Assembly (NCBI GenBank): GCA_016183325.1
Contig: JACPEV010000011.1
Location: forward strand, 36,782 to 100,781
DNA: 64,000 nt
Direction: 5' to 3'
Origin: Candidatus Curtissbacteria bacterium
Lineage (GTDB): Bacteria > Patescibacteriota > Microgenomatia > Curtissbacterales > GWA2-41-24
Part shown: piece by piece, positions 1,229-47,872 of the stretch
Layout: each line of letters begins with the position of its first letter
Position numbering within the stretch: the first letter of the stretch is position 1
Program-made: the position numbers and the translations under genes
Notes under the pieces: generated by a model
What the model saw: the letters and a program-made list of their open reading frames with translations, nothing else
Database searches by the model: none
Told to the model about the DNA's origin: nothing

Positions 1229-1305
1229 CGGGGAGTAGCTCAGTTGGCTAGAGCGCCGCGTTTGGGACGCGGAGGTCGAAGGTTCAAGTCCTTTCTCCCC
1301 GACTT
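1229..1305 (+). tRNA. tRNA-Pro (anticodon TGG)
   Basis: C1:G72 acceptor typical of bacterial tRNA-Pro. Anticodon stem CCGCG/CGCGG with loop TTTGGGA, T-loop TTCAAGT. Confidence 0.85.
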
Positions 1306-1369
1306 TGATTTTTGAGGCTAAATTAGCGTGATTTTGGGGTTGATGGAGATAGGACTTCGAACAATTAAC

Positions 1370-2131
1370 TTAAACTTTTCTTGCTCTAACTACTAACCGA
1401 GAGGCTCCAAAAGAAGTATATTTGCTGTATTCCTCTGGGTTTGTTCGTTCTCCTTCTTTTGCAACATCTGGTTCGTCAATCATATCGATTGTAAACCCAG
1501 CACTTATTGTTTCATTTATGAAGTCTGCAGTAGTTCGGTGAAAGAAGGGTGTTTCCGACCCCCAAGGTGTCTTCTCATTTCGCCAACCTCGTTTTTGATA
1601 GAGTGATAGATTGTCATTTACAATCCTAATAGGATGAGTTGTAACGTAAAATAGAACTCCATCGCTCTTAAGCCACTTGTGAAAGTTTGCCATCATTCTT
1701 TTAAGTCCTTCTTCATCAAGGTAATGGAATACCATTGCAGCAGTTATCAAGTCGAAGTGATTTGTTGGAAGGTCAGCGTCAACTAGGTCAGCTTGAATTA
1801 GTTTCACTTCTGGAAGTTTTTTTCTTGCTTCATCCAGCATATTTTGGCTAATATCAACGCCAGTTACGTTATCGGGCTGAATCCCATTATTGATTAAATG
1901 TTCAATTATTCTGCCACTTCCGCAGCCAGCGTCTAACACACGAACTTGTGGTCTACATAAGTCTCTAAGGTGTCTATCAAAAGCAGGTTTCTCTATGAAT
2001 TGCCAACTGAATGAGGTGGGAGCAAAGTCAATGTACGATTTAGCTTGTTCGGAATAAACCCTTGCAATGTTTTGACCATTTGGCTGTTCAGGCATAGATT
2101 GTATGTTATTGTAGTCAGAGGCTTTAAGCAA
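1370..2131 (-). CDS. Class I SAM-dependent methyltransferase
   Basis: 253-aa ORF. Motif I VLDAGCGSGR with a downstream acidic motif (VDIS). Confidence 0.8.
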   Translation of the reverse strand: MLKASDYNNIQSMPEQPNGQNIARVYSEQAKSYIDFAPTSFSWQFIEKPAFDRHLRDLCRPQVRVLDAGCGSGRIIEHLINNGIQPDNVTGVDISQNMLDEARKKLPEVKLIQADLVDADLPTNHFDLITAAMVFHYLDEEGLKRMMANFHKWLKSDGVLFYVTTHPIRIVNDNLSLYQKRGWRNEKTPWGSETPFFHRTTADFINETISAGFTIDMIDEPDVAKEGERTNPEEYSKYTSFGASRLVVRARKV

Positions 2132-2248
2132 GTGCGAGCGTTGGCTGAAGTTTTTCTACCTTCTCTGTTAGGAAGTCTAAGTCCTGCCGATTTACAACAT
2201 TTTGTGTCCAAATTGTTCGAAGATCGTCCAGTATTGTCGACTAGAGAA

Positions 2249-2312
2249 GATTACAAAGAATGCTTATTTTGGATTATCTTAACAAGACTACGGGAGGGCC
2301 GTCCCCAATCCG
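2249..2312 (+). repeat. Copy A of a ~58-nt conserved intergenic element (TTACAAAGAATGCTTATTTTGGATTATCTTAACAAGAYTACGGGAGGRSCGTCCCYAAT)
   Basis: Near-identical to 4131-4192, with 3 mismatches over ~58 nt. Lies between two minus-strand genes. Confidence 0.6.
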
Positions 2313-2325
2313 CTATATTTTGATC

Positions 2326-3234
2326 TTAATTAACAGGAGTTACTTCAAGAGGTTTATCAGCCCCAGTGGGGTATTGCAGAATATAGGTATCGATCTTTCC
2401 TTTTGAGGTACTCTTTTTGATCGAATCTTCTTTTAAGGTGTTAACAAGCCGAGTCATTAAACTATATTCACCTTCTCCATTACCAATTACCTTCAGTTCC
2501 CAACTCCCAATCATATCTGTTATTGCAAATGATTCTAATTGATCAGGGAGTCGTCCTTCATAGTAAACATCTTCAATTCCATTTAACCTCTCCCCAGTTT
2601 TAGGATCATAACCCGCATGAGTACCCTCAGGACTCGTTAAATAAAAATCAGCAGGACCTGTAAGAACCAAAAACACCCTCTTGAGAGATTCTGGTTGTCT
2701 TTGTTGTTCTTCAAAAGGCAGGTTGGTATTACCATAAACAGCAGTCTCACTGTTACTTATTAACCAAATTCCCGAGGTATTTTTTTCCAGTGTCACCACT
2801 GTAGGTAAAGTTTGTCCACTGACGACTAAATCCACATTAACAAATGCTTTATTACCACCAAAATCAGTTTTAGTTTCAGTAATCTTATAGCTAAACTCTT
2901 GATTATATAAAGAGGGAGAATTAGTATCGTTTTCAAAAGTTGATTTGAATGCAGCTTTATTAACATTTTCAGATAAATAGCTCTTAGCCTTACTCTTATT
3001 CTTATCTTTAACTGCTTGAAAGAAGGCTGTTATAATATTTTCAGGTTTACTTTCTGGGGTTTTGTTAGTTCCTTTTGATTCTTTCAACAGTTTCTCAGAA
3101 TTTGTAGCTTCTTGCGATTTATTTTGAACTTGTCCTTTTAGATAAAAAGCTCCCAAAGGAATACTCACCAACAACACAACAAATACTGAAATAATTAGAA
3201 TTGAAGAAAATCCTTGTTGGTTAACAATCTTCAC
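2326..3234 (-). CDS. Hypothetical membrane-anchored protein (N-terminal TM helix, Ser/Thr/Asn-rich exported body)
   Basis: 302-aa ORF. N-terminal hydrophobic helix ILIISVFVVLLVSIPLGAF. No domain recognised. Confidence 0.5.
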   Translation of the reverse strand: MKIVNQQGFSSILIISVFVVLLVSIPLGAFYLKGQVQNKSQEATNSEKLLKESKGTNKTPESKPENIITAFFQAVKDKNKSKAKSYLSENVNKAAFKSTFENDTNSPSLYNQEFSYKITETKTDFGGNKAFVNVDLVVSGQTLPTVVTLEKNTSGIWLISNSETAVYGNTNLPFEEQQRQPESLKRVFLVLTGPADFYLTSPEGTHAGYDPKTGERLNGIEDVYYEGRLPDQLESFAITDMIGSWELKVIGNGEGEYSLMTRLVNTLKEDSIKKSTSKGKIDTYILQYPTGADKPLEVTPVN

Positions 3235-3304
3235 AATTTAATTGTCAGTCTTTATTAGTGAAGTTGTCAATAATAGATTCGTAACTATGATGCCAAGGCC
3301 TTTT

Positions 3305-3481
3305 TTACTTAAAGAAAGGAAATACTGATTTAATCCAAGAAACTAGTTGATTAAGCCGAGCCTCTAAAAAGTTTTGTCTTTGTTTTGACTGCTCCAATTG
3401 ATTTTGTAAATTTTCTACTTTTTGGTTTAACTCCTCAATATTTGAATTATCAGGAGACAGGAGTTCTTTGTAGTAAAACAT
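3305..3481 (-). CDS. Small coiled-coil ORF (58 aa), hypothetical
   Basis: ATG to TAA, MFYYKELLSPDNSNIEELNQKVENLQNQLEQSKQRQNFLEARLNQLVSWIKSVFPFFK. Below the 60-aa threshold of the ORF track. Confidence 0.25.
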   Translation of the reverse strand: MFYYKELLSPDNSNIEELNQKVENLQNQLEQSKQRQNFLEARLNQLVSWIKSVFPFFK

Positions 3482-3511
3482 TATACTGATTTATTTGAGA
3501 TTTTTTTGAAG

Positions 3512-3899
3512 TTATTTTATTTTCGCTTCGCGAAAACCTAGGATTATCAATCCTAGGATGAAGCGAAGAGAAAACATACTTCCGAGAAAGTTTCGAGTTA
3601 GAACCGGAGCCGAATGATATGATTGGTGAAAACCGAGGGCTATTAGCCCTCGGAAGTTTATTTTTTCGAATTCATCTCTAGAGATATTTACATCTCTTAA
3701 AATTTTTCTAAGAAGTCCTATTCTAACATTTTCTCCAGAATGAACTGGTACGCTAGTTTTTCTGCCATCAGCATGTTCTAACCTAACATGACTGCCACTT
3801 TGACGGATCTTCATAGCATCCCTGCAGTTCTGGTACCTCTGCAATATACCATCCATCTTCGTCTTGTTCTATTAACACTTTAAACTGTAGGTCTTTCAT
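3512..3899 (-). pseudogene. hicA: Degenerate hicB–hicA toxin–antitoxin remnant (HicB N-terminal fragment frame-shifted onto a HicA-like C-terminal core)
   Basis: Frame 1 (3899→3783) reads MKDLQFKVLIEQDEDGWYIAEVPELQGCY..., a HicB N-terminal signature, then stops. The overlapping frame (3856→3512) reads ...MKIRQSGSHVRLEHADGRKTSVPVHSGENVRIGLLRKILRDVNISRDEF, a HicA core lacking its usual N-terminal ~15 aa, with a tail that runs through palindromic hairpins. Confidence 0.4.
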
Positions 3900-4130
3900 A
3901 TTAAACGAATTATACCACTAAAATATGTAGTTTGTCGGACTAGTTTCAGCTTTATAAATTAATATTTCATTTCATGATCAAAAGTTGCTGGATTCCAGCG
4001 TTTTAGGATAGAATCTACCGGTGGGAGCAGCGATTCGACTGAGCTCATCGTCGAAGTCTTGCCCTGCGTACTGAGCGAAGCCGGAGTATCGAAGGGTTCA
4101 AGATTTCTCGCTCCTATTCGTCCGGGGAAG

Positions 4131-4192
4131 GTTACAAAGAATGCTTATTTTGGATTATCTTAACAAGATTACGGGAGGAGCGTCCCTAATAG
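4131..4192 (+). repeat. Copy B of the ~58-nt conserved element, immediately 5' of the RBS (AAGGAGG) of the DUF4242 gene
   Basis: Matches 2251-2309 and ends in the GGGAGGAGCGTCCCTAAT motif. Confidence 0.6.
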
Positions 4193-4214
4193 TTAATTAA
4201 GGAGGTGATTACGG

Positions 4215-4463
4215 ATGGCTACGTTTATCGGAATTCATAAGTTTGATGCCGGTATTGGTGACGAGACGATTCGTGGAAAGTGGTCGAAATACAAAGATTC
4301 GTGTGCCAAGTTAAGCTTGAAGCCGGTTAATCTTTATCTCAATGGGGATCAAGGGGCTGCGTTTTGCATAACGGAAGCTTCAAATGGTGAAGAAGTGAGA
4401 AAAGCTCACGAAGATGCTGGTTTAACAGTGGATGAGGTAATTGAAGTTAGGGTGAGCGAGTGA
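4215..4463 (+). CDS. DUF4242-family small protein
   Basis: 82 aa. ...AAFCITEASNGEEVRKAHEDAGLTVDEVIEV matches the DUF4242 pattern (CLVEAP..E.V...H.EAHGL.ADEI.EV). Strong SD 9 nt upstream. Confidence 0.55.
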   Translation: MATFIGIHKFDAGIGDETIRGKWSKYKDSCAKLSLKPVNLYLNGDQGAAFCITEASNGEEVRKAHEDAGLTVDEVIEVRVSE

Positions 4464-4466
4464 CGG

Positions 4467-4940
4467 TTATGTTTTCGGGTAGCAAGTTATCGCGAATTTG
4501 TAGGTTTTTTTGCTTGTTTCCTTATCGAGTGTGAATATTCCCTCCCTTGGTCTTTTGAGAAGTATTTCGCACCGTCCATCTTCGAGCGAATCATTGGTGA
4601 ACAGAAATTCGTCTGGAACAGATGTATATATTTGGGTTGCGACAAACCACCCTTGGGATAGGAAATCTCTGTAATAGGTATAGATTTGTGGCCAGTTGTC
4701 TGTAGTTTGGAATTCGATTATCGAAGGTACTTCTGTGCAGCCATCGAAGTAGACGAAGCAAGGGCGTTTAGTGTTATTGACGTCCCATGACTTGGCATTT
4801 GGGTATTTAAAGATGTTTTCCGATACTTGTTGTGTTAGTGTGTTTGGTTTTTTGGAAAAGTTAGTATAAAGAATATAGCCAAAGAAGGCGGTAAGGCTTA
4901 GGGTTATAATAAGTGGCAGGATAGACCCTTTTCTTATCAC
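4467..4940 (-). CDS. Hypothetical membrane-anchored protein
   Basis: 157 aa with an N-terminal TM helix. No domain recognised. Confidence 0.45.
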   Translation of the reverse strand: MIRKGSILPLIITLSLTAFFGYILYTNFSKKPNTLTQQVSENIFKYPNAKSWDVNNTKRPCFVYFDGCTEVPSIIEFQTTDNWPQIYTYYRDFLSQGWFVATQIYTSVPDEFLFTNDSLEDGRCEILLKRPREGIFTLDKETSKKTYKFAITCYPKT

Positions 4941-4999
4941 AATACCATTTTAGCAGATTATGCGTTAAAATTATTCATAAGTCATGTGGTTGTTTTTTT

Positions 5000-5773
5000 A
5001 TGGCTAAAATTCTTAAGTTCATTCAGGTAAACATTTATAAAGGGAAATATTTGGATGCGCTTGTTGATTTTTTGAAGAGTGAAGATCCGGATTTTGTTTC
5101 GATGCAGGAGGTATCTTCGGGAGTTGTTAACGAGTGTGCTGATAGGAAAATCGATCTTTTTGGTTTTCTTGGAGAAAAACTCAAGATGTACGGTCGGTTT
5201 TCTGATAATGTGGCACTTTCTGATTTTGATGATTCGGGACTCGGTAACGCTGTTTTATCCAAATTGCCCATCATAGACAGTAAGGTTGAAGTCCTTAAAG
5301 ATTTTAGACGTTTGTTGCTTTCCGAACTTAAAGACGATAAATTTTGGCCGGAGATTAAAAGATCGATTGTCGACGTTTCCGTTAAGATAAATGGCGAGAT
5401 TTTGCATGCGATGTCGGTGCATGGAGCTTGGACAGCGCCACCGACGGATACCAACGAAACGGCCCGTCAGGCGAAACTTATTGCTTCTTACCTTAAGTCT
5501 CTTGGCGATGTACCTTTCATTTTAGGTGGTGATTTTAATATGCCGCCGGAGATGAAAGTGATTAAGATTATTTCTGGTGTTGCAAATAACTTGATGCTTG
5601 GCTCACCTTTTAAATACACGACTCATCCTGAGGTGCATAAAATTGTACCAAGGAAGCTTTTGGTTGATTATATTTTTACCTCGCGCCATTTTAAAAAAAT
5701 ATCTCTTGCAGTTCCGGAAGTTTTAGTCTCCGATCATTTGCCGGTGGTTGCTCAGTTGGAGTTTGTGCCTTAA
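5000..5773 (+). CDS. Endonuclease/exonuclease/phosphatase (EEP) family protein
   Basis: N-terminal FVSMQEV and C-terminal LVSDHLPVVAQLEF, both EEP hallmarks. Confidence 0.7.
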   Translation: MAKILKFIQVNIYKGKYLDALVDFLKSEDPDFVSMQEVSSGVVNECADRKIDLFGFLGEKLKMYGRFSDNVALSDFDDSGLGNAVLSKLPIIDSKVEVLKDFRRLLLSELKDDKFWPEIKRSIVDVSVKINGEILHAMSVHGAWTAPPTDTNETARQAKLIASYLKSLGDVPFILGGDFNMPPEMKVIKIISGVANNLMLGSPFKYTTHPEVHKIVPRKLLVDYIFTSRHFKKISLAVPEVLVSDHLPVVAQLEFVP

Positions 5774-5796
5774 TTTTTGGTAAAATATGGTCACTT

Positions 5797-5867
5797 GCGA
5801 GTGTAGTTCAATGGCAGAACACCAGTTTTCCAAACTGGATACGAGGGTTCGATTCCCTTCACTCGCT
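5797..5867 (+). tRNA. tRNA-Gly (anticodon TCC)
   Basis: Acceptor GCGAGTG/CACTCGC, anticodon stem CCAGT/ACTGG with loop TTTCCAA, T-loop TTCGATT. Confidence 0.85.
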
Positions 5868-5872
5868 CACAT

Positions 5873-5945
5873 GCGCCCATAGCTCAACGGATAGAGCGTT
5901 CGCGTTCTAAGCGAGTGGTTGGGGGTTCGAATCCCTCTGGGCGCG
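5873..5945 (+). tRNA. tRNA-Arg (anticodon TCT)
   Basis: Acceptor GCGCCCA/TGGGCGC, loop GTTCTAA, T-loop TTCGAAT. Its 3' end plus 6 downstream nt (CTGGGCGCGCTAAAT) recurs twice downstream. Confidence 0.8.
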
Positions 5946-5951
5946 CTAAAT
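5937..5951 (+). repeat. Direct repeat copy 1 (CTGGGCGCGCTAAAT), overlapping the tRNA-Arg 3' end
   Basis: Identical 15-mer at 6498-6512; 14/15 match at 7268-7282. Confidence 0.8.
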
Positions 5952-6497
5952 CTTGGTCTCACAGAGACCCGGGGACGGTCCTAAGCTTCCTTGTCCTAAT
6001 AATCTAATTTGAGAATTGTTTTTGGTGCTTCTTTATTCAAACTGTCTTACAACTAAATCTAAGGGACTAATTTTTCAGAGACTCTTACAACTATTTCATT
6101 TTTGGACTATTGTATCAAGCCTTCTGAGGACCGTCCCCTAAATAACCTAAATAACTTTTTCTCTAACCGAAGCAAAAAAAATGAGAGTCCCGAGGGCAAT
6201 AAGAAATCTTTTACGATTGCTTGAATCAGCACAAGGGAAAATGATTTTTGGTAATGTGATCTCATATATTAGAGGATGAAATAGCCGTGTGAGAATACCA
6301 AAAGATTATACGGGCATCCGATTAAAAATTTTCCCTCATCAAGAAATATATTTTGTCCAAAATCCTAATATTTGCATAGAAACTGTTCCTTTTACTAGAG
6401 AAGAAGTGGTCACGTTAGCTAATGGGATTTTGAAAAATCCTGGAGTTTATTGAATGCATAGAGTAAATTATAGAAAACGATGTCCAACTGGAGACAC

Positions 6498-6512
6498 CTG
6501 GGCGCGCTAAAT
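6498..6512 (+). repeat. Direct repeat copy 2 (CTGGGCGCGCTAAAT); it contains the stop codon of the epimerase gene
   Basis: Exact match to 5937-5951. Confidence 0.8.
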
Positions 6513-7238
6513 TGAACCAGCATTGTCAGCTGGTTCGTAACCCAATTCTTTTTGAGCATTGCTAATATCCCAAAATCTGCCATCATTATTAGAAACTCCA
6601 TAATAAATCCCAAACTCAACAGGTGCCTGAAGTGATTTCTGTATAAGTTGTATAAGATCTCGATGGCTAAGCCAAGTTTTTCTCATCCTCTCATCTGCTC
6701 TTGGATCGTCCTCTTTTGTAACTGTCCCTATTCTTAGACAGATAGATTGAACATCATATAATTCGTAATATTGCCGCGCTAATCCTTCGCCAAATAGTTT
6801 ACTATTACCATAATCGCTATCAGGCCTTACTGGATCATTAACAGTGATAACTCTTGGAGTCTTTTGTTTATGGAGAGTTGGAGGCGTACCTTCATAGAGA
6901 CCGGTGACGTGATTCGAGCTGGCGAAGACAATTCTTCTTACCCCAAACAATCTTGCGCACTCATATACATTTTTAGTACCAATTATATTATTTCTTAATA
7001 CGGAGTCCCACGGAGCATCAACCCTCGAATCTGCGCCCAAATGAATTATATATTTTACATCGCCAATTTTTGAAAAGATTTTTTTAAATGATTCAAAATC
7101 GGTTATATCTGCTTTATAAAATCTATCAGTATCATCCCCTACTTGATCGACTGTATATACCTTATATAAATTATTCAGGGGTTCTTTTAGCACCGTTCCT
7201 ATTGTTCCTTCAGAACCAGTCATAATTAGCTTTTTCAT
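6507..7238 (-). CDS. NAD-dependent epimerase/dehydratase family (SDR-like) protein
   Basis: 243 aa. N-terminal Rossmann motif MTGSEGTIGTVL. Bracketed precisely by repeat copies 2 and 3. Confidence 0.7.
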   Translation of the reverse strand: MKKLIMTGSEGTIGTVLKEPLNNLYKVYTVDQVGDDTDRFYKADITDFESFKKIFSKIGDVKYIIHLGADSRVDAPWDSVLRNNIIGTKNVYECARLFGVRRIVFASSNHVTGLYEGTPPTLHKQKTPRVITVNDPVRPDSDYGNSKLFGEGLARQYYELYDVQSICLRIGTVTKEDDPRADERMRKTWLSHRDLIQLIQKSLQAPVEFGIYYGVSNNDGRFWDISNAQKELGYEPADNAGSI

Positions 7239-7267
7239 CGGTCTAAGTATATACCAACTAACTGTTT

Positions 7268-7282
7268 CTGGGCGCGCTAAAA
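7268..7282 (+). repeat. Direct repeat copy 3 (CTGGGCGCGCTAAAA), 29 bp upstream of the epimerase start
   Basis: 14/15 match to the tRNA-Arg 3' end repeat. Confidence 0.75.
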
Positions 7283-7343: not shown

Positions 7344-8225
7344 ATGAAAAAGGGAAGGTCAGTTGTGAATAAATTGATCAACTATGGTATTTATCTGGCC
7401 GTAGTTGCGATGTTCGCGGCGTATTTAGTTATATCAACAACGAATGACGGGCTCGGTACTGTTGCGGCCGCTCGCGACTCAGCCCCTAGCATTGGATCCG
7501 CCCCTGACCCAAGTCCGAGCTCATCACCGCCTCCTACCCCAGAGCCGGTGTACAAGGGCTATTGCCTGAATGTTCCGGTTTTAATGTATCACCATGTTGA
7601 ACCGATTGAGCAAGCTCGCGCCGCTTGGCATGCGCAATTGACTGTTGATGTTGGCGTTTTTGAGAACCAAATGAAATATTTGATCTCGCGGGGTTACAAA
7701 ACAATTTTTGCCGATGAGCTTGTTGATGCTTTAATCAATAAGCGAAGCTTACCTGCAAAAAGTGTTGTTATCACTATGGATGACGGATATAGTGATATTT
7801 ACACTTATGCATACGAAATCTTGAAGAAGCATGACATTAGGGCAAATTTGATGATATCAACCGGCCTTTTGGAAAATCCTGGATATATGACTTGGAATCA
7901 ATTAAAACAAATGGTTCAGAGTGGTCACGTGACTGCGTATGATCATACCTGGTCGCATAGTTCACTCGTAGGTAAATCAAATGAGAAAGCAATATATGAA
8001 ATTGTGACAGCAAAAGAGCAACTTGAGCAGCAGCTTGCAAAAAACCAGAATATTTTTGCATATCCTTATGGGACATATGACTCGCGAGTAATTAGTTTGC
8101 TTAGGGAAAATGGATTTATAGCCGCTTTTTCGACAGATGGCGGAACTATCCAATGTGATTCTTTTATTATGAGTTTACACAGGGTAAGGGTGGGCAATTT
8201 TCCACTTTCAGCTTACGGAATTTAG
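7344..8225 (+). CDS. Polysaccharide deacetylase (NodB/CE4 family), membrane-anchored with a Pro/Ser-rich linker
   Basis: VITMDDGYSD, HDIRANLMIS and HTWSHSSL motifs. N-terminal TM helix. Confidence 0.8.
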   Translation: MKKGRSVVNKLINYGIYLAVVAMFAAYLVISTTNDGLGTVAAARDSAPSIGSAPDPSPSSSPPPTPEPVYKGYCLNVPVLMYHHVEPIEQARAAWHAQLTVDVGVFENQMKYLISRGYKTIFADELVDALINKRSLPAKSVVITMDDGYSDIYTYAYEILKKHDIRANLMISTGLLENPGYMTWNQLKQMVQSGHVTAYDHTWSHSSLVGKSNEKAIYEIVTAKEQLEQQLAKNQNIFAYPYGTYDSRVISLLRENGFIAAFSTDGGTIQCDSFIMSLHRVRVGNFPLSAYGI

Positions 8226-8329: not shown

Positions 8330-8402
8330 GGAGGTCGTAGCTCAATGGCAGAGCAGCAGCTTGTGGAGCTGCGGGTTGGGGGTTCAATTCCCCTCGGCCT
8401 CC
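8330..8402 (+). tRNA. tRNA-His (anticodon GTG) with encoded G-1
   Basis: An extra 5' G pairs with the discriminator C. Anticodon stem GCAGC/GCTGC with loop TTGTGGA. Confidence 0.85.
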
Positions 8403-40760: not shown

Positions 40761-40801
40761 ACATTAAATTATACCCAAAAAAATGAGAGAATTCTGAAGG
40801 G

Positions 40802-40818
40802 TGGCCCTACGGGGAGTC
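40802..40818 (-). repeat. 17-bp copy of the tRNA-Glu 3' end (GACTCCCCGTAGGGCCA), an att-like direct repeat
   Basis: Exact match to 41180-41196 inside the tRNA-Glu gene. The 361 bp between the two copies contain only a GIY-YIG gene. Confidence 0.8.
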
Positions 40819-40885
40819 TACACTTCGCTCGAAATAGTTTTTTCGAGCTTCGAGTAGTTTATATTCCCTTGAACCATATTCTTCC

Positions 40886-41143
40886 CTAAAGTTTCTTTAG
40901 AGATTTAAGAAAATGTTTATACATAAAAGCAACTCCTGATCCTGATTTTAAGTATTTTTCAAAACCCAAAGCGTCAGCTTTCTCAACGAACGAGGAATAG
41001 TGCACAAGTTTGTAATTCAGGTTAGATTTTGTCGACTGAACTTTACCTGATAGATGTCTTTGGATACGTTTTCTTAAATCTGGAGTGTAACCTATGTAAT
41101 ATCGATTTGTAATTTCGTTAAATAAAATGTAAACGTAATACAT
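40886..41143 (-). CDS. Small GIY-YIG nuclease, YhbQ/UPF0213-like (85 aa)
   Basis: YYVYILFNEITNRYYIGYTPDLRKRIQRHLSGK (GIY...YIG, R, H..G) and the downstream E/K-rich helix. Confidence 0.8.
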   Translation of the reverse strand: MYYVYILFNEITNRYYIGYTPDLRKRIQRHLSGKVQSTKSNLNYKLVHYSSFVEKADALGFEKYLKSGSGVAFMYKHFLKSLKKL

Positions 41144-41179
41144 TAGGGGTTTACTATCCGAAACTTTAGTGAAGGATAG

Positions 41180-41251
41180 TGGCCCTACGGGGAGTCGAAC
41201 CCCGCTTTGGACCTTGAAAGAGTCCCGTCCTAACCGATAGACGATAGGGCC
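41180..41251 (-). tRNA. tRNA-Glu (anticodon TTC)
   Basis: Reverse complement folds as GGCCCTA acceptor, anticodon stem GGACT/GGTCC, loop CTTTCAA, T-loop TTCGACT. Confidence 0.85.
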
Positions 41252-42106: not shown

Positions 42107-42168
42107 GGGGGTATAGCTCAATTTAGTTAGATCCGGCGGTGCCGGACTTTGACGAGTGAACTCTAGTT
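42107..42168 (+). other. tRNA-like pseudo-element 1: a tRNA 5' half (GGGGGTATAGCTCAATTTAGTTAGA) with the D-stem/anticodon-stem replaced by hairpin TCCGGCGGTGCCGGA, followed by an anticodon-loop-like CTTTGAC
   Basis: Cannot fold as a cloverleaf. Shares the hairpin insertion with element 2. Confidence 0.45.
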
Positions 42169-42185: not shown

Positions 42186-42240
42186 GGCCCGCTAGCTCAA
42201 TGGTAGATCCGGCGAAGCCGGACTTTTAAGCGATTGGTTC
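42186..42240 (+). other. tRNA-like pseudo-element 2: a copy of tRNA-Lys nt 1-23 plus 34-52, with the central 8 nt replaced by hairpin TCCGGCGAAGCCGGA; it abuts the GIY-YIG start codon
   Basis: GGCCCGCTAGCTCAATGGTAGA-[hairpin]-CTTTTAAGCGATTGGTT matches the intact tRNA-Lys at 42489 except for the replaced core. Confidence 0.6.
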
Positions 42241-42498
42241 ATGTATACTGTCTACGTAATTAAAAGTGAATCGACGGGCAAAATATATATTGGTCAAACA
42301 GCAGTTAAAGTAACAAGATTAAAAAGGCACAATAAGGAGCTGCCTTATAATCCAAAAGGATTTACAGCAAAGAATGTAGGGCCGTGGAGAATTGTTTACG
42401 AAGAAACTTTTGAGACAAGAACAGAAGCATTAAAAAAAGAAAAATATTTAAAATCACACGTGGGACGCGATTACATCAGAAAAACATTGGCCCGCTAG
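42241..42498 (+). CDS. Small GIY-YIG nuclease, YhbQ/UPF0213-like (85 aa); its stop codon lies inside the 5' end of tRNA-Lys
   Basis: MYTVYVIKSESTGKIYIGQTAVKVTRLKRHN... The stop TAG comes from GGCCCGC-TAG-CTC of the tRNA. Confidence 0.8.
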   Translation: MYTVYVIKSESTGKIYIGQTAVKVTRLKRHNKELPYNPKGFTAKNVGPWRIVYEETFETRTEALKKEKYLKSHVGRDYIRKTLAR

Positions 42499-42560: not shown

Positions 42561-42572
42561 CTCTTCGACTCG

Positions 42573-42594
42573 CCCTGAGAGTAATCGAAGGGCT
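42573..42594 (+). repeat. 22-bp hairpin-containing direct repeat CCCTGAGAGTAATCGAAGGGCT, upstream flank of the third GIY-YIG gene
   Basis: Counterpart CCCTGAGTTTATCGAAGGGCT at 42947-42967, immediately after the gene. Confidence 0.6.
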
Positions 42595-42661
42595 CGCTCA
42601 GAGTAAACTCGAGTTGAAGAACCCTGAGCGAATTATAATGTTGAGAGAATCGAAACATTAA

Positions 42662-42934
42662 ATGAGTCGAAGGGCTAATGTATCTTGGTACGTATATATA
42701 GCTAAAGCAAAAACTGGCAGATATTACACAGGTATAACCACAAGTCCAGATAAAAGAATTATTAAACATAACTCCGGGAAGGGTTTAAAGTTTGCCATAG
42801 AGCAAGGCCCATTTGAATTGGTCTATGTCTCAGAAGCATTTCCAAATAAGTCAGAAGCAAGAAAACGAGAAATTCAAATTAAAGGCTGGTCGAGAGAAAA
42901 GAAATTAAAACTAATAAGCGGCGAGTGGAAATAA
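42662..42934 (+). CDS. Small GIY-YIG nuclease, YhbQ/UPF0213-like (90 aa)
   Basis: WYVYIAKAKTGRYYTGITTSPDKRIIKHNSGKGLKFA...LVYVSEAFPNKSEARKREIQIKGWSREKK closely follows the YhbQ pattern. Confidence 0.8.
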   Translation: MSRRANVSWYVYIAKAKTGRYYTGITTSPDKRIIKHNSGKGLKFAIEQGPFELVYVSEAFPNKSEARKREIQIKGWSREKKLKLISGEWK

Positions 42935-43064
42935 AATTGAAGTTTACCCTGAGTTTATCGAAGGGCTGAAAGCGTTCCAGTACCCTTTGCCCCAACTATA
43001 TCTTTAACTTCGCTTTTTAACAAATCTATGTGTAAATGGAATTTTAGCCACAAAAGGCATATAA

Positions 43065-43658
43065 TTGCCGACTATGACTCCCGATTTGCGTCCTAGTGAT
43101 AACAACGAGGACGATAAACCAACTACGAGAGAAGAAATTGCTTTTGTGATTTTAACCTGGTTACAAGAAAGCCCTTCAGAGGTAGTTGAGGCAGCTGATT
43201 TGATGATGTGGGTTAGCGAAAATCATGCTCTGGTAAAGCTCCGTGATAGATTAAGAGATGCTTACTTAAAAGTGGATGGAGTAGAAGTAAGTGATTGGTT
43301 TACTCGTGGAGTTTCTGCAGCTTTTATGTATTTCCATGAAGTAGGTCAGGATATTGATAAAACGGACATACCTGTAATCACTCAAGGCACAATAGACTCA
43401 TTTAGATCAGATGCGGGAGAGAGTCGCAGGCAAAGGATGATTGCCTCAGAGTTTCTACTGGGAGATGAGTTAGCTGCAGAAAGATTACGGAGAGTAAATA
43501 AGATTTACGACCAAACGGATAAAAATCTACTGTTAATTTTAATGGAAACAAGGCTTAGGCCGGAAAATAAAGCAGTTTCGGAAAAAGCCCTAAGGGCTTT
43601 TCTGGAAGGTGGAATAATTGTGAATAATCTATTTGATAAGCAAGTACAATCTGCTTAG
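43065..43658 (+). CDS. Hypothetical protein (197 aa), GC-richer than its surroundings
   Basis: No domain recognised; predicted helical. Confidence 0.4.
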   Translation: MPTMTPDLRPSDNNEDDKPTTREEIAFVILTWLQESPSEVVEAADLMMWVSENHALVKLRDRLRDAYLKVDGVEVSDWFTRGVSAAFMYFHEVGQDIDKTDIPVITQGTIDSFRSDAGESRRQRMIASEFLLGDELAAERLRRVNKIYDQTDKNLLLILMETRLRPENKAVSEKALRAFLEGGIIVNNLFDKQVQSA

Positions 43659-43849
43659 TTCAACGTCCGAGTAGGAGATAGTTTAGGTTTGAATTTTGAG
43701 ATAAAGCCAAATTTGTGTAAAGCGATTTTAGTCCACCGAACGCCTGGTTCCCTTTCGACAAGCTCAGTGCTTTAGCATTCCAATCCCTTCTTGTCCTCAG
43801 ATTTTCGAAGGGTGCCCCACTATCCATAAAAAGAAGATAATTGACGATT

Positions 43850-44284
43850 TTATTTAGAAGTAAATATTATCTTTTCTTCCGGTCTTCTTAACTCAATACC
43901 TTGGAATTGATCGAAAAATCCCTTTTGCCCCAGAATAGTTTGATTATGCGCCGAACTAAAATCCGCAAACGTTTCTATTGTCAAACTTTCAAAAAATATT
44001 TTTATTCCAAAATGACGATAGGCTTCAATTGGAGGCGCATCACCAATGCCTTTTATTCTTATAAGTGTCCCTTTTGTCAGATTTATACCCAACACTCTAC
44101 AAATATCTGCAGGAAATAAGTTGTAGTCTGATCCTGAATCAACTAACGCAGTCAATCTAATCATTTGTCCATGCTTATAATTCACTTGAACGTCTACTAG
44201 TGGCCTAAGAACTGTCGAGGGCTTACCTTTGGTATCTAAACCAGGCGACTCTTGATACCAGACGGTTATTTTTTTAGAAGTCAT
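43850..44284 (-). CDS. Retropepsin-like (clan AA) aspartic protease
   Basis: LTALVDSGSDYNLFP (D-S/T-G-A/S), with a second Gly-rich flap-like segment IKGIGD. Confidence 0.55.
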   Translation of the reverse strand: MTSKKITVWYQESPGLDTKGKPSTVLRPLVDVQVNYKHGQMIRLTALVDSGSDYNLFPADICRVLGINLTKGTLIRIKGIGDAPPIEAYRHFGIKIFFESLTIETFADFSSAHNQTILGQKGFFDQFQGIELRRPEEKIIFTSK

Positions 44285-44287
44285 AAA

Positions 44288-44473
44288 CTACGGAGAATAC
44301 GCAGTATCCGCCGGGGGTACTTTATAGAAAGTTGCCTTCTTCGCTTTTTGTTTGAGTTCATTCCACAATTTATTAAAGCTGCTTCCATGGGCAATTACTC
44401 TACTTTTGGAACGGTCAATCGCAACCCACTCATTGGCATATTTTGCCATATTCGCTATCCTTTTTCTCTTCAT
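44288..44473 (-). CDS. Small protein (61 aa) co-transcribed upstream of the retropepsin-like protease
   Basis: 3-nt gap to the downstream gene. ...YANEWVAIDRSKSRVIAHGSSFNKLWNEL. Confidence 0.4.
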   Translation of the reverse strand: MKRKRIANMAKYANEWVAIDRSKSRVIAHGSSFNKLWNELKQKAKKATFYKVPPADTAYSP

Positions 44474-44737
44474 GCAAAGATAATTATACTACTGATCGGA
44501 TTTTGTTCAAGTTGTCATACATATTTGTTGAACCGGATTGACACGTGTCTCTTTTTTGCAATCAAACGATTAATAAAGTAGACGTGCCAAGGTGAGTCAA
44601 ATGGAAAGTGGATTTTTAACCTTTTTTATCCTGCTACGTGTCTTCCTTCTTTTATGGGTGCAATCCCAAGAGGAGCGGGTACGGCGGACACCGCTTCAAT
44701 CCAAAAATCTTAAATATGTATATTCTAATATTAGCAA

Positions 44738-44766
44738 TTGATAAGCTTGGCAGTTTATGATATAAT
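44738..44766 (+). promoter_or_regulatory. Canonical σ70-like promoter TTGATA-N17-TATAAT for the GHKL operon
   Basis: -35 at 44738-44743, -10 at 44761-44766, ~28 nt before the first ATG at 44795. Confidence 0.55.
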
Positions 44767-44794
44767 AACTTCGATTTTTAGGGAAAATAAAAAA

Positions 44795-45010
44795 ATGTCA
44801 GAAACGCGCAGCGAAAAATTTAAAAGACTTGCGACTTATCGTACCAACATAGTGCTGGAAAAACTCCGTATTCTTGGAAACCTATCTAACAAAACAAACT
44901 ATGATTACACAGATGAAGAAGTACATAAGATATTTTCTGCTATAGATGATGGCCTTAAAAGAGTAAAGGCTAAGTTTAGTTTAACGCGTAAACAACACTT
45001 TACACTTTAA
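44795..45010 (+). CDS. Small protein (71 aa), first gene of the GHKL operon
   Basis: MSETRSEKFKRLATYRTNIVLEKLRILGNL.... I chose the ATG at 44795 over the track start at 44738, which overlaps the promoter. Confidence 0.45.
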   Translation: MSETRSEKFKRLATYRTNIVLEKLRILGNLSNKTNYDYTDEEVHKIFSAIDDGLKRVKAKFSLTRKQHFTL

Positions 45011-45013
45011 TCT

Positions 45014-46681
45014 ATGGAAGTTCTCGAGACTATTCCAATAAATATTAGGGACCAACATAACTTACTTAATCTTCTTGCTGAAAGCTATAAAAGCTTAAAT
45101 AAAGCTTTAATGGAGTATATAGATAATTCTTTTGATAGTGCAGATGACTATTACGATGATGTTTTAGGGAGGTATCAACGTGATGTTGCTATTATCATTA
45201 CCATCGATCGAGCAAATAATACAATATCAGTCCTTGATAATTGTAATGGCATGGACTTGGAAATTCTGAAGGGATTAGCTAATAGTATTAATGATTCAGA
45301 AAAACGTCGACGAGCGCAAAAGAGACCATGGGTTAATGGTCAATTCGGACTTGGAGCTCATGCTTATCGTTTTTTTGCTCAAAAGCTACGCGTAATTACC
45401 AAGAAAAAAAATTCATCTACTGGTGCAATCTCTATTGATCGTGATGAGCCCGATGCGAAACTTATTAAACCATACAAATCTATATCGAATGATAGTGGTA
45501 CTTTTGTTGAGCTCTCGGATATCGATCGACAACAGATCAAGCGTTTAAATATCCAAGAACTCAAGAGAGACATTGAAACGTACTTCGAAATGCTACTTCG
45601 TAGAAATGTTGCAATAACGATCCGCGATGATGATCAAGTATCTGTATGCGAAAGTTTCGATTATGATCAACTCGAGGGGATTCCTATTCAAAAAGTAATA
45701 ACCAGTTGGCATCGTGGTTCGGCAACCCTTAGTTATCCTGATTCAGCTCGCGGAATTCATATAAATCTTAAAGTTTGCACAAAAAAAATGGACAGACCAC
45801 CGTTTTTTTCACGCAAAGGAAGACGAATTAATTACATTTCGCACATGGATTCATTTATTCGAAAAACCGAACACCGAAAGAAGGTCTGGGAGAACTACTA
45901 CCTAACAGGATATATTGAGGTTGGCGACAATTTAGAACCTATTATTACGCGTGACGATTTTATGGGTGGTAAAGGTAAAACAGCGACGCGCAGCGGTATT
46001 TATGAAGAAATTGTTAAAGTTGAAGATGATATTTACGCAGCAATTGAACAGGTCAATCGCGATAGAAGCGATGAAAATTTTCGTAAGCTAGCTTCAGTAT
46101 TGACAGAACTTTTGACAGAAATCACTAAAGAAGAAGATCTTAGAATTCGTCATGAAAATAAAGATGGTCAAAGAAACGAACAACCATGGGTTTCCGTGTC
46201 ACCGGATCCCGGGGAAGGTGAAGAATATGATATTAAGAGTAATGGTAATAATCGACCCGGAGATAAGCCAAAAATCAGCGTAGTAACTCCTGATTTAGAG
46301 GGAGAGCTGATGGGCCGTAAACGTGAGCGCGAAAAACAAGGTATTAGGATTGAGTTTAGTACGTTACCCGTCGTAGAGGGAGATCGCCGTACACATTTTG
46401 GCGACAGCGTTATTACTATTTTTACAAATCATCCGGATTTTTCAGAACGTAGAGGTCGTGGAGATCTTGAACAAATTATTATCAATCCCCGACTAGCCAA
46501 TTATTTAGCTGCAATAATCTCTTCAGAATATAAAGAAGTTTTTTACAATTTAAAGAAATTGGAACCTGATCGAAAAAAAGTTCTCGATGAACAGATAGAA
46601 TTTATTTTTCGTTTCGAGGAAAAACTGAAAAACTACATTAATCAACCGCTTGACGCCCTGGGAAACGTTACTCGCAGCTAA
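45014..46681 (+). CDS. GHKL (Bergerat-fold) ATPase of MutL/MORC/Hsp90 type with a ~350-aa C-terminal region of unknown function
   Basis: N-box LMEYIDNSFDSAD, G1 VLDNCNGMD, G2 GQFGLGAHAYRF, G3 SGTFVELSD. Confidence 0.7.
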   Translation: MEVLETIPINIRDQHNLLNLLAESYKSLNKALMEYIDNSFDSADDYYDDVLGRYQRDVAIIITIDRANNTISVLDNCNGMDLEILKGLANSINDSEKRRRAQKRPWVNGQFGLGAHAYRFFAQKLRVITKKKNSSTGAISIDRDEPDAKLIKPYKSISNDSGTFVELSDIDRQQIKRLNIQELKRDIETYFEMLLRRNVAITIRDDDQVSVCESFDYDQLEGIPIQKVITSWHRGSATLSYPDSARGIHINLKVCTKKMDRPPFFSRKGRRINYISHMDSFIRKTEHRKKVWENYYLTGYIEVGDNLEPIITRDDFMGGKGKTATRSGIYEEIVKVEDDIYAAIEQVNRDRSDENFRKLASVLTELLTEITKEEDLRIRHENKDGQRNEQPWVSVSPDPGEGEEYDIKSNGNNRPGDKPKISVVTPDLEGELMGRKREREKQGIRIEFSTLPVVEGDRRTHFGDSVITIFTNHPDFSERRGRGDLEQIIINPRLANYLAAIISSEYKEVFYNLKKLEPDRKKVLDEQIEFIFRFEEKLKNYINQPLDALGNVTRS

Positions 46682-46699
46682 TTATCTCTTCGGTATAAT

Positions 46700-47566
46700 A
46701 TGCTTATGCAGTCAGAAGATTTAATCACAATTATTGATAGTCTAGCCCCGATAAATAATGCTTTTCGAATGGAAAAAAAAGCAATTAAGAAAGTTGAGTA
46801 TGTCTGGGAACTTGGCTCGCTTCTTGATGAATATATTAAGAAATATAAATTAACATTAGATGAACTTCTTTACTCTATTTATGATCCACATGCTACGATC
46901 AAACATAGTAATATTACACGGTCATTAGGAAGTTATAGTTACAGGATTTTCCATTTTTTTAAAAAGAAAGAAGATGTTCGCAAAACAATTCCAAATTTAA
47001 AGTCGTATAACGTCTTTATAGAAGCATTGCCCTTACTGGTTAATATAAAGTATAAAACGCATGTTAATAGCGAAGATATTCTCGCTATGGTTAATTCACA
47101 AAAATCCACTCGGCAAACTATTAACAGATTAACTTTGATAAAACAATCAATTTTGCCAACAAGAAAACTTAGAATTCCTCCGGGTCTCATGTATACAGAG
47201 GAAAAAAGATTTTTAGTTTCAGTCATTAAATATATCCGAGGTTTATATGAAAAAAATGAGTCTATTTTCTCATTTAATAATTTGCAGTATGAGTTGCATA
47301 AAGAGAAGTATCGTGAGCAACTTGTCTTAATTTTAATGGCATTAGCAAGTGACTCGTTTATGAATAAGGTAAAATCGTATAAGGAAAATGAAGTTAATAA
47401 AAACTTAAGACGCTTGTTCCAAATTGCTATAAGTAATAATGAAAAAAGATCACGATTTCGAAGATGGGTTTTGTCAGCAAACGAACTGCTGTGGTTGGCT
47501 GAGGCAATTCATGCCTTAGGTGATGATAACGACTTTCATTTTTTCAAAAAGAAGCTAGAGAAATAA
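46700..47566 (+). CDS. Hypothetical protein (288 aa), third gene of the GHKL operon
   Basis: 18 nt after the ATPase gene. Lys-rich and helical, no recognised domain. Confidence 0.5.
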   Translation: MLMQSEDLITIIDSLAPINNAFRMEKKAIKKVEYVWELGSLLDEYIKKYKLTLDELLYSIYDPHATIKHSNITRSLGSYSYRIFHFFKKKEDVRKTIPNLKSYNVFIEALPLLVNIKYKTHVNSEDILAMVNSQKSTRQTINRLTLIKQSILPTRKLRIPPGLMYTEEKRFLVSVIKYIRGLYEKNESIFSFNNLQYELHKEKYREQLVLILMALASDSFMNKVKSYKENEVNKNLRRLFQIAISNNEKRSRFRRWVLSANELLWLAEAIHALGDDNDFHFFKKKLEK

Positions 47567-47590
47567 TTTTTTGCCTATAACCATTGGGTA

Positions 47591-47642
47591 GCAGTGATTG
47601 GATTATATATCTATACAATTCCAATGCGCAACTGCTTTTTTT
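47591..47642 (+). terminator. Intrinsic terminator closing the GHKL operon
   Basis: Stem GCAGTGATTGGA...TCCAATGCGCAACTGC followed by TTTTTTT. Confidence 0.7.
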
Positions 47643-47721
47643 ACCTCAACTTTTTAAGAACTATTTGAAAGAAGGCTCCAAATCAGGTAAAACTATGATT
47701 TCCAAAAAGGAGGTAATCTAA

Positions 47722-47865
47722 ATGAAGTTTACTCAAATTGCAGTTGCTGGCGTTGGTAGAAGCAATGATAACTCTGCTTATAGTGTTGCGTTGTTTGCCT
47801 TAAACGAAAATGGCAAATTATTTTTTGTTGTGCTAAACTCCGCCTGGCTAAATTCATTCAATCGT
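47722..47865 (+). CDS. Small ORF (47 aa) with a strong SD (AAAGGAGG, 8 nt upstream), ending 7 nt before the next gene
   Basis: MKFTQIAVAGVGRSNDNSAYSVALFALNENGKLFFVVLNSAWLNSFNR. Confidence 0.3.
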
Positions 47866-47872
47866 TAAAATT

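Follow-up and report, generated by a model that had tools for sequence, protein, structure and literature searches.

Cis-mobilizable elements (CIMEs) are defined as elements that have kept their attachment sites attL and attR and have lost their integration and transfer genes, and they are known to accrete in tandem (PMC5704250, reviewing Pavlovic et al. 2004). In Prochlorococcus, tandem integration at a tRNA gene leaves behind repeats of partial tRNA sequence together with degraded elements (10.1101/2020.12.28.424599). Here we describe a locus of this general appearance in a 64,000-nucleotide stretch of a Candidatus Curtissbacteria genome (contig JACPEV010000011.1), referred to below as the window. 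Two short units, designated units 1 and 2, follow a tRNA-Arg(TCT) gene in this window and are bounded by three direct copies of a 15-nt sequence that includes the tRNA 3' end. The explanation we favour, and consider rather probable, is that the repeats are the junction scars of two successive insertions of foreign DNA at one site across the 3' end of the tRNA gene.

The host belongs to the Microgenomates, within the Candidate Phyla Radiation (CPR). Members of this radiation, despite very small genomes in which few mobile elements can be recognized, gain genes horizontally. At the present locus an intact metabolic gene lies at a tRNA 3' end as part of a unit of less than 1 kb, with no recombinase in sight.

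Three copies of a tRNA-end repeat

The principal features of the locus, in the coordinates of the window, are as follows.

5873 to 5945 (Rfam, 64.8 bits) or 5873 to 5946 (ARAGORN), forward strand: tRNA-Arg(TCT), intact, with no encoded CCA.
5937 to 5951, forward strand: repeat copy 1 (attL-like), CTGGGCGCG of the tRNA 3' end followed by CTAAAT.
5952 to 6497: unit 1, 546 bp, 35.5% GC, no supported gene.
6498 to 6512, forward strand: repeat copy 2 (internal junction), an exact 15-mer within which the dehydrogenase gene has its last sense codon and its stop codon.
6507 to 7238, reverse strand: complete gene for a 243-aa NAD-dependent dehydrogenase of the short-chain dehydrogenase/reductase (SDR) superfamily, resembling uronate dehydrogenase (Udh) and the archaeal glucose-6-phosphate dehydrogenase Azf; Pfam PF01370 'Epimerase' (1.1e-22).
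7268 to 7282, forward strand: repeat copy 3 (attR-like), CTGGGCGCGCTAAAA, followed by the flank towards a polysaccharide deacetylase gene.

A preliminary description of the locus had reported a 15-mer repeated exactly at 5937 and 6498 and with a 14/15 match at 7268, copy 1 being the last 9 nt of tRNA-Arg plus 6 nt. Both statements were confirmed. In our pattern scan the 15-mer CTGGGCGCGCTAAAT is exact at 5937-5951 and 6498-6512 and carries a single mismatch (A as its last base) at 7268-7282, all three copies having the same orientation and register. With up to two mismatches allowed, the window holds three matches, versus 0.06 expected from 100 shuffles, none of which reached three. The block common to all copies is a 14-nt core, CTGGGCGCGCTAAA, which starts at 5937, 6498 and 7268 and occurs nowhere else in the window; the T that precedes it is common to copies 1 and 3, and the T that trails it to copies 1 and 2. 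Sub-cores such as TGGGCGCG are confined to the same three places, and a scan of the whole window with the 16-mer at up to four mismatches yielded no further likeness above chance, such that within the window the repeat is specific to this locus. Copy 1 starts inside the acceptor stem and comprises the final 9 nt of tRNA-Arg (5937-5945, the Rfam end of the tRNA being at 5945) and 6 nt of flank. When the downstream sequence was shuffled 150 times, the best match to the tRNA end was 13/15, versus the 15/15 observed.

The 14-mer is absent from 173 loci of other bacteria that had been fetched for other reasons. Its remaining matches are restricted to the window's own contigs and to 16 viral loci that were themselves retrieved by searching for the 14-mer. 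In the Logan assemblies SRR12113424, SRR12113383 and SRR12113419, all three copies lie on single contigs that are 100% identical to the window; since three independent assemblies give the identical arrangement, it is not an assembly artefact.

Repeats of this kind might also arise with no mobile DNA at all, the 15-mer being a functional motif (a protein-binding or processing site) or the product of a local duplication, and the location of the copies at gene boundaries, next to hairpins, is compatible with such a role. The motif, however, is missing from the rest of the window and from all other bacterial loci examined here, save those fetched by searching for it, and one of its copies belongs to the tRNA itself. 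Moreover, the enclosed gene has been transferred horizontally and occupies a non-orthologous position, and the same architecture is found at other tRNAs with unrelated repeat sequences, as detailed below. We consider an origin without mobile DNA to be extremely improbable.

The site after tRNA-Arg in related genomes

The comparison set consisted of 80 loci of relatives (L010-L089) and the loci of homologs (L108-L189), which together with the window amount to 1.64 Mb. The tRNA cluster Leu-Pro-Gly-Arg(tct)-His is kept in many of the relatives. In four of them (L054, L033, L038 and L039) the Arg and His genes are spaced by 2-22 nt; in others the gap measures 0.2-3 kb and is filled with varied genes. 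This cargo includes GIY-YIG nuclease genes (L022 and L076) and, as read by eye, a protein with a Fic-type motif together with an HNH-like one (L057), unknown genes with an apparent small PLD-type nuclease (L052) and housekeeping-looking NadD/NadE (L058). A search of the 80 relatives' loci around the deacetylase gene recovered no counterpart of either unit.

The site after tRNA-Arg(tct) is thus variable, and the content of the window at this site is unique among the 80 loci. The insert is absent from the same site in the relatives, all of them from outside the genus, and the arrangement is not common to them. The closest deacetylase other than the window's own is 54-66% identical. An exact scan of 185,579 species genomes with the 3' half of the tRNA-Arg produced no match, nor did a scan of the Joint Genome Institute (JGI) metagenomes with the tRNA end and its flank; in the absence of a close relative from the collections, no empty site could be seen.

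The dehydrogenase gene of unit 2

Unit 2 (6513-7267) is filled by exactly one complete gene, the TAG stop codon of which (6507-6509) lies inside copy 2 and the ATG of which (at 7238) is 29 nt from copy 3. The preliminary description had recognized this layout correctly, a single gene with its stop in repeat 2 and its start 29 bp from repeat 3, and had called the product an NAD-dependent epimerase/dehydratase. From its sequence relationships, the protein (MBI2327438.1) is better described as a Udh/Azf-like sugar dehydrogenase than as an epimerase. Its best curated match in NCBIfam is Azf, an NAD-dependent glucose-6-phosphate dehydrogenase, at 190 bits (below the cut-off of 400), and the closest solved structures are uronate dehydrogenases. 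The possibility of a truncated gene was rejected, as the 243-aa protein aligns from end to end with homologs of 243-250 aa (the family having about 245 aa). The enzyme may add a sugar-oxidation step to the reduced metabolism of its host.

Two further features belong to this unit.

7239 to 7267, reverse strand: leader of the gene, 29 nt long, in which TGgTATATA (an extended -10-like element, recognized by eye) lies 9-17 nt upstream of the ATG.
6514 to 6536: hairpin GAACCAGC-attgtca-GCTGGTTC, 1 nt past copy 2, made of the last codons of the gene.

In aligned homologs, TATACT and TATAAT are found at the position of the -10-like element. Unit 2 is a minimal cargo unit, composed of one intact gene with its own -10-like element. 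A promoter-like site is also present outside the unit, at 7345-7316, such matches occurring near chance level.

Homologs of the dehydrogenase at other tRNA ends

The two closest homologs of known genomic context share 76-78% identity with the dehydrogenase (L108, and L110/L190), and both lie in the vicinity of tRNA genes. In L108 the gene is located between two tRNA genes: GTCCCCGGCACAAGA, made up of the 10 nt that end tRNA-Ser(UGA) and a further 5 nt, has a second copy, GTCCCCGGCACCAGA, beyond the gene at a distance of 1095 nt. The repeat on both sides reads GTCCCCGGCAC[A/C]AGA, a 14/15 match that was equalled in 1 of 300 shuffles. In L110 (and likewise in L005 and L190-L194) the gene is 1.3 kb from a tRNA-Glu 3' end and is the last of three genes. 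This array (L005:325-1790; L110:1470-2985) encodes the dehydrogenase, a coiled-coil protein with 14-aa repeats and a C39-like peptidase, and it abuts the 3' end of tRNA-Glu. Each of the three genes is preceded by a repeat of 57-80 nt that ends in ATAACTACCAYTAGGGATTARAAC, and its conserved part resembles the tRNA-Glu 3' end with 4 nt of flank, in an alignment that is suggestive only. Samples differ in how many 14-aa repeats the coiled-coil protein has, its length being 117 or 131 aa.

In all three genomes (the window, L108 and L110) the dehydrogenase gene points toward the tRNA. The DNA homology between the window, L108 and L005 is restricted to the gene together with 13 nt ahead of it and 3 nt after its stop codon, and so ends inside core 2. 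L190 is syntenic with the window at YraN-RNaseHII-L19-DnaE-GatB, where the proteins are 35-56% identical versus 78% for the dehydrogenase, and the dehydrogenase of L190 resides at a different site. This excess of similarity at non-orthologous, tRNA-adjacent sites argues that the gene was exchanged after the lineages had split and that it inserts next to tRNA 3' ends. Judging from these comparisons, the gene has moved horizontally among Microgenomates, and the tRNA-adjacent homologs constitute the strongest evidence for insertion. Among 80 JGI metagenome loci with homologs, a tRNA within 4 kb was seen in L110 only (0 of the 79 others), and no relatives of the dehydrogenase were found in viral contigs.

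The array in L110, with a repeat before each gene, brings to mind a cassette system analogous to integrons, wherein the tRNA end would be the primary site, each cassette would consist of an open reading frame (ORF), a core and an adjacent hairpin, and the recombinase would be encoded elsewhere. The close packing of one ORF between two cores of the window accords with this scheme, as do several small details. Hairpins lie 1-3 nt past cores 1 and 2, and the second of these evolved in coding sequence of this genome only, being missing at the equivalent place in the homologs L005 and L108. Cores 2 and 3 each have CCAACT at a distance of exactly 8 nt on their left, and the promoter-like site at 7345-7316 would be outside the cassette. 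As single-stranded DNA, however, the three core regions (z of -1.5, -0.2 and +1.2) and the repeats of L005 (-0.8 to +0.6) fold no better than shuffled sequences. There is no GTTRRRY/RYYYAAC core site and no intI-like gene, unit 1 is devoid of a gene, and the repeats at the three tRNAs have no common sequence. We regard such a system as distinctly improbable.

Proposed tandem insertion and its difficulties

On the comparative evidence, tandem insertion at the tRNA 3' end is well supported. Direct repeats include the 3' part of the tRNA, and the tRNA itself is intact. In the sequence of events that we favour, each incoming circular DNA would carry the same 14-15-nt core and would recombine, within that core, with its counterpart at the tRNA end. 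The exchange would restore the tRNA and push the earlier unit downstream, leaving the newer unit next to the tRNA and giving the order tRNA-core1 / unit 1 / core2 / unit 2 / core3 / old flank; unit 1 would thus be the later of the two arrivals. As both events took place at the same 14-15 nt, a defined site is indicated rather than random microhomology. Since neither unit encodes a recombinase, movement would require an enzyme that was supplied in trans, as for CIMEs, or has since been lost.

Several observations weigh against this explanation. The first concerns the missing enzyme. No integrase or other recombinase is encoded in or beside units 1 and 2, which contain the dehydrogenase gene and no other supported gene, and a six-frame motif scan of the window for signatures of tyrosine and serine recombinases, a weak test, was negative. 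In the 1.64 Mb of fetched loci, only three Xer-like tyrosine recombinases were identified, none of them near a tRNA:

L013:3027-3962, Xer-like gene.
L026:10766-11725, Xer-like gene.
L040:5851-6798, Xer-like gene.

Nor is there a recombinase in or near any of the roughly nine tRNA-end units that we have seen. The preliminary description had proposed tandem site-specific insertions with no integrase remaining: the inserted DNA at the tRNA-Arg end is borne out by the comparisons and the absence of an integrase was corroborated, whereas evidence of a recombinase, as site-specific insertion would imply, was not obtained. The Xer-like genes adjoin or lie near the deacetylase gene of their respective genomes (in L026, from Curtissbacteria, directly after it); the deacetylase gene of the window has no Xer-like neighbour.

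Secondly, exact-pattern scans of viral, metagenome and genome collections revealed no empty site, excised circle or matching attachment site. The contigs of this population all have the identical arrangement, with no polymorphism, and those with an identical upstream Exo_endo_phos gene or deacetylase gene either break inside the tRNA genes or show the same arrangement. Thirdly, the codon usage of the dehydrogenase gene, for which the preliminary description had proposed a test for anomalies, is ordinary; only its third-position GC is low (0.26 versus 0.37 +/- 0.05, z about -2.1). Furthermore, all of the tRNA-end repeats, including those described below, run 1-21 nt into non-conserved flank, which would also fit a target-site duplication.

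The last of these difficulties relates to copy 2. In L108, where the flanking repeat has another sequence and there is no Arg-type core, the gene carries nine of these 15 nt at its end as well (ATTTAGCGC, read on the gene strand), so that some of core 2 may have belonged to the gene from the outset. The two genes likewise have TCAATTTAGCGC in common at their ends. This similarity lends itself to another explanation, a single composite island that arrived in one event, with a middle copy that is partly native to the gene or derived from gene conversion. In the same vein, a terminator-like hairpin for the dehydrogenase gene is located just across core 2, in unit 1 (6498-6479), and suggests that the two units work together. 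A single match of this type, however, is no more than shuffled sequences provide (mean 1.2), and copy 2 equals copy 1 over 15 nt, the six bases beyond the shared nine being unexpected by chance (about 1 in 4096). A composite island thus seems to us a poor prospect, and two successive insertions remain the explanation that we prefer.

A number of other candidate readings were discarded. The 16-mer has 16 matches in viral contigs, which were attributed to chance: they are in unrelated, mostly high-GC phages and have no tRNA or integrase context. CCAACT-N8-core has no match in viral contigs. As to a transposon, no inverted repeat pairs the ends of either unit and no transposase is present; a 168-nt hairpin in unit 1 (described below) has inverted ends yet stops short of the cores. 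Inspection by eye disclosed no convincing likeness to a dif/Xer site. A primer-binding site of a retroelement was rejected, both on account of the repeat, which is not complementary to a CCA-ended tRNA (TAG where TGG is needed), and on account of a tRNA-Glu unit (below) of opposite orientation.

The non-coding unit 1

The GC content of unit 1 is 35.5%, versus 40.1% for the window. A comparison of its sole called ORF (6289-6453, 54 aa) with 5.8 billion proteins recovered only the ORF itself, and the six-frame pieces of the unit gave no credible match in Pfam or PHROG (best E = 0.25). The AT-rich, non-coding nature of this segment, as well as a hairpin and an inverted pair of motifs within it, had been noted in advance and were verified. 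A decayed gene was rejected, in view of the orphan ORF and the lack of a family match in any frame or of a GIY-YIG remnant. DNA similar to unit 1 was not found in the 80 relatives' loci.

The structural features of unit 1 are the following.

5955 to 5969, forward strand: short hairpin GGTCTCacagAGACC (GGTCTC-acag-AGACC), 3 nt past copy 1.
5971 to 6138: long imperfect hairpin of 168 nt, with perfect 11-nt inverted ends GGGGACGGTCC and GGACCGTCCCC (starting at 5971 and 6128).

The short hairpin is not followed by a T-run and is therefore not a canonical terminator. The long hairpin has fold z-scores of -3.4 (forward strand) and -4.5 (reverse strand) and no match in Rfam. A homologous 144-nt element with the same ends is located at L043:521-664, 65 nt from a tRNA-Leu. 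The inverted ends, GGGGACGGTCC(T), are thereby conserved over 11-12 nt in two distant Microgenomates genomes, among tRNA genes in both, and the element could be MITE-like (a miniature inverted-repeat element) or a structured RNA.

Similar units and GIY-YIG genes at other tRNAs

Comparable arrangements were detected at other tRNA genes, both in the window and in the relatives.

40801 to 41251, reverse strand: tRNA-Glu(TTC) at 41180-41251, followed by one 85-aa GIY-YIG gene (40886-41143) and by an exact 18-nt repeat of the tRNA 3' end, GACTCCCCGTAGGGCCAC, at 40801-40818, 361 nt downstream.
42561 to 42945: GIY-YIG unit (gene at 42662-42934) that starts right at the 3' end of tRNA-Lys(TTT).
L048:326-500 and L048:1531-1730: short units.
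L045:2131-2320: short unit.
L064:13148-13330: short unit.

The short units in L045, L048 and L064 are gene-less, measure 80-100 nt and follow tRNAs; they are bounded by repeats of 13-39 nt that comprise the tRNA 3' end and flank. L062 offers a further example, in which a 31-nt repeat (28/31) that straddles the end of tRNA-Arg(tcg) bounds a GIY-YIG gene downstream of that tRNA. Overall, 6 of 119 tRNAs in the relatives' loci have a downstream repeat of their 3' end of at least 13 nt, versus one in the upstream control. The preliminary description had offered a decayed island or an integron-like cassette as the identity of the tRNA-Arg insert. The former fits poorly, in that unit 2 consists of a single undamaged gene and other units, too, contain one gene each; the latter finds no support in the strict sense, for want of attC-like folding, the GTTRRRY core and an intI gene.

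The tRNA-Lys GIY-YIG unit has a counterpart in a Levybacteria genome, after tRNA-Lys(CTT) (L076:15487-15830), with about 85% DNA and 84.5% protein identity, the homology beginning at the final bases of the tRNA and ending 11 nt after the stop codon. The deacetylases of the two genomes are only 52% identical. This pattern marks the unit as a mobile mini-element whose target is the 3' boundary of tRNA genes. Upstream of it, a duplicate of the 5' two-thirds of tRNA-Lys(TTT) (GGCCCGCTAGCTCAATGGTAGA ... TTTTAAGCGATTGGTT) occupies 42187-42240, with one strand of its anticodon stem replaced by the hairpin TCCGGCGAAGCCGGA. This pseudo-copy and the real tRNA are separated by an 85-aa GIY-YIG gene (42241-42498), the ORF of which overlaps at its end with the start of the tRNA, and a further tRNA-like fragment with the same hairpin is found at about 42109-42160.

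Of 12 stand-alone GIY-YIG genes (85-90 aa, catalytic domain only) in the 1.64 Mb of loci, 10 have a tRNA no more than 170 nt away, and those near tRNAs are almost always just downstream and on the same strand. Our literature searches found no description of GIY-YIG genes beside tRNAs in Patescibacteria. A nuclease-triggered insertion has to be weighed for the tRNA-Arg locus: a GIY-YIG enzyme would cut at the tRNA end, repair would insert foreign DNA, and the 15-nt target would be duplicated between the staggered cuts. On this view the repeats would have arisen as target-site duplications and would not be cores used by a recombinase. In addition to the distribution of these genes, two of which are situated between tRNA-Arg(tct) and tRNA-His (in L022 and L076), and to the tRNA-Lys unit that begins at the last bases of the tRNA, this proposal draws on the two GIY-YIG units bounded by tRNA-end repeats (18 and 31 nt), on the extension of all repeats into non-conserved flank and on the scarcity of recombinases in these genomes. 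Nevertheless, a GIY-YIG gene is part of the separate tRNA-Glu unit and not of the tRNA-Arg units: a tblastn search of 5946-7282 with the window's three GIY-YIG proteins returned nothing significant, neither a gene nor a remnant. Seven of nine GIY-YIG units have no repeat, and the repeat lengths, 14 to 39 nt between cases, imply no fixed stagger. The proteins possess the catalytic domain only. The overhangs left by known GIY-YIG homing enzymes are 2 nt long, and these enzymes spread through homologous repair; long target duplications are not known to result from their action. On balance we find a nuclease-triggered origin of units 1 and 2 unlikely, and successive insertion through a shared core is retained as the preferred account.

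A broader view would be that the Microgenomates have a system of minimal, recombinase-less single-gene cassettes at tRNA 3' ends, which would pass from one genome or tRNA gene to another, duplicate 14-39 nt of the tRNA end on each arrival, and be driven in trans, possibly by tRNA-flank-specific GIY-YIG nucleases instead of an integrase. The cargo seen so far comprises the sugar dehydrogenase, GIY-YIG nucleases and small non-coding units. We put this forward as a speculative and rather improbable generalization; if true, it would give genomes almost devoid of classical mobile elements a new way of acquiring genes. Should minimal units of this type prove common, tRNA clusters would be the chief places at which CPR bacteria take up genes, and scans for repeats of tRNA 3' ends would find recently gained genes in metagenome-assembled genomes. 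If, on the other hand, the units are decayed remains of ordinary integrative elements, the finding would be routine.

Neighbouring genes and accessory regions

The immediate neighbours of the array are listed here.

5797 to 5868, forward strand: tRNA-Gly(TCC), the first of the Gly-Arg pair (ARAGORN, Rfam).
7344 to 8225, forward strand: polysaccharide deacetylase gene, the right-hand neighbour (Pfam PF01522).
8331 to 8402, forward strand: tRNA-His(GTG) (ARAGORN, Rfam), which directly follows tRNA-Arg(TCT) in several relatives.

Among the genomes compared, only the present one has a deacetylase gene between tRNA-Arg and tRNA-His. Further upstream, 4.5 kb of accessory-looking genes (1304-5796) splits the tRNA cluster into Leu-Pro and Gly-Arg. 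These genes code for a methyltransferase, an SCO4226-like protein, a protein of the endonuclease/exonuclease/phosphatase family and a 302-aa unknown protein with the lowest third-position GC of the window; there is also a HicA toxin ORF (Pfam), and a short ORF that overlaps it may be the antitoxin. A possible defence or accessory island, downstream of the tRNA-Lys and GIY-YIG region, consists of a block of unknown genes (43065-48853), one of which encodes a 555-aa HATPase_c_3 (MORC/GHKL-type) protein.

Comparison with known systems

Among free-standing GIY-YIG homing genes, exemplified by SegB of phage T4 in a tRNA gene cluster (PMC2330249), selfish nuclease genes are likewise positioned among tRNAs, and the same type of site, 3' of a tRNA, is used in the window and its relatives. 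The tRNA-Arg units differ in that they lack a nuclease gene; moreover, classical homing leaves no long direct repeats, and the proteins found here are reduced to a catalytic domain of 85-90 aa.

The resemblance to integron cassettes lies in the single ORF between recombination-site repeats, in the overlap of the site with the stop codon and in the array beside a fixed primary site. Unlike integrons, the locus has no attC-like imperfect palindrome and no 7-bp GTTRRRY core, its repeats are 14-16 nt of tRNA sequence, and one unit is without an ORF. The array is neighboured by tRNA-Gly/Arg on one side and by the deacetylase gene on the other, and no intI/attI/Pc platform is present.

The Tycheposon islands of Prochlorococcus (10.1101/2020.12.28.424599) are closer in several respects. 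They too are found in a streamlined genome, with insertions at a few tRNAs that include Arg(tct) and Ser(tga); new arrivals push the older ones inward, partial-tRNA repeats and degraded elements accumulate behind the tRNA, and the cargo is metabolic. Tycheposons, however, are several kb in length and encode a recombinase of the tyrosine or large serine type, in most cases together with a replication module; no such genes lie in or near the units described here.

The closest parallel is provided by the tRNA-targeting elements in general and by the CIMEs in particular. As in these, the insert is bounded by direct repeats of the tRNA 3' end, its two tandem units share an internal attachment site, and attL/attR-like repeats are present on each side of each unit in the absence of integration and transfer genes. 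The described CIMEs are decayed integrative and conjugative elements (ICEs) or integrative and mobilizable elements (IMEs) of several kb, as opposed to the present units of 561 and 770 bp, one single-gene and the other non-coding, and their host here is a CPR bacterium with a reduced genome. A cognate integrase-bearing element was not seen in the window or in the 1.64 Mb of fetched loci. With its lack of a recombinase, with one intact gene in place of a ragged remnant and with repeats that run into non-conserved flank, the locus departs from the classical picture. It is nonetheless of a known kind, in a compact, recombinase-less, single-gene form, residing in a CPR genome and bearing a recurrent cargo gene.

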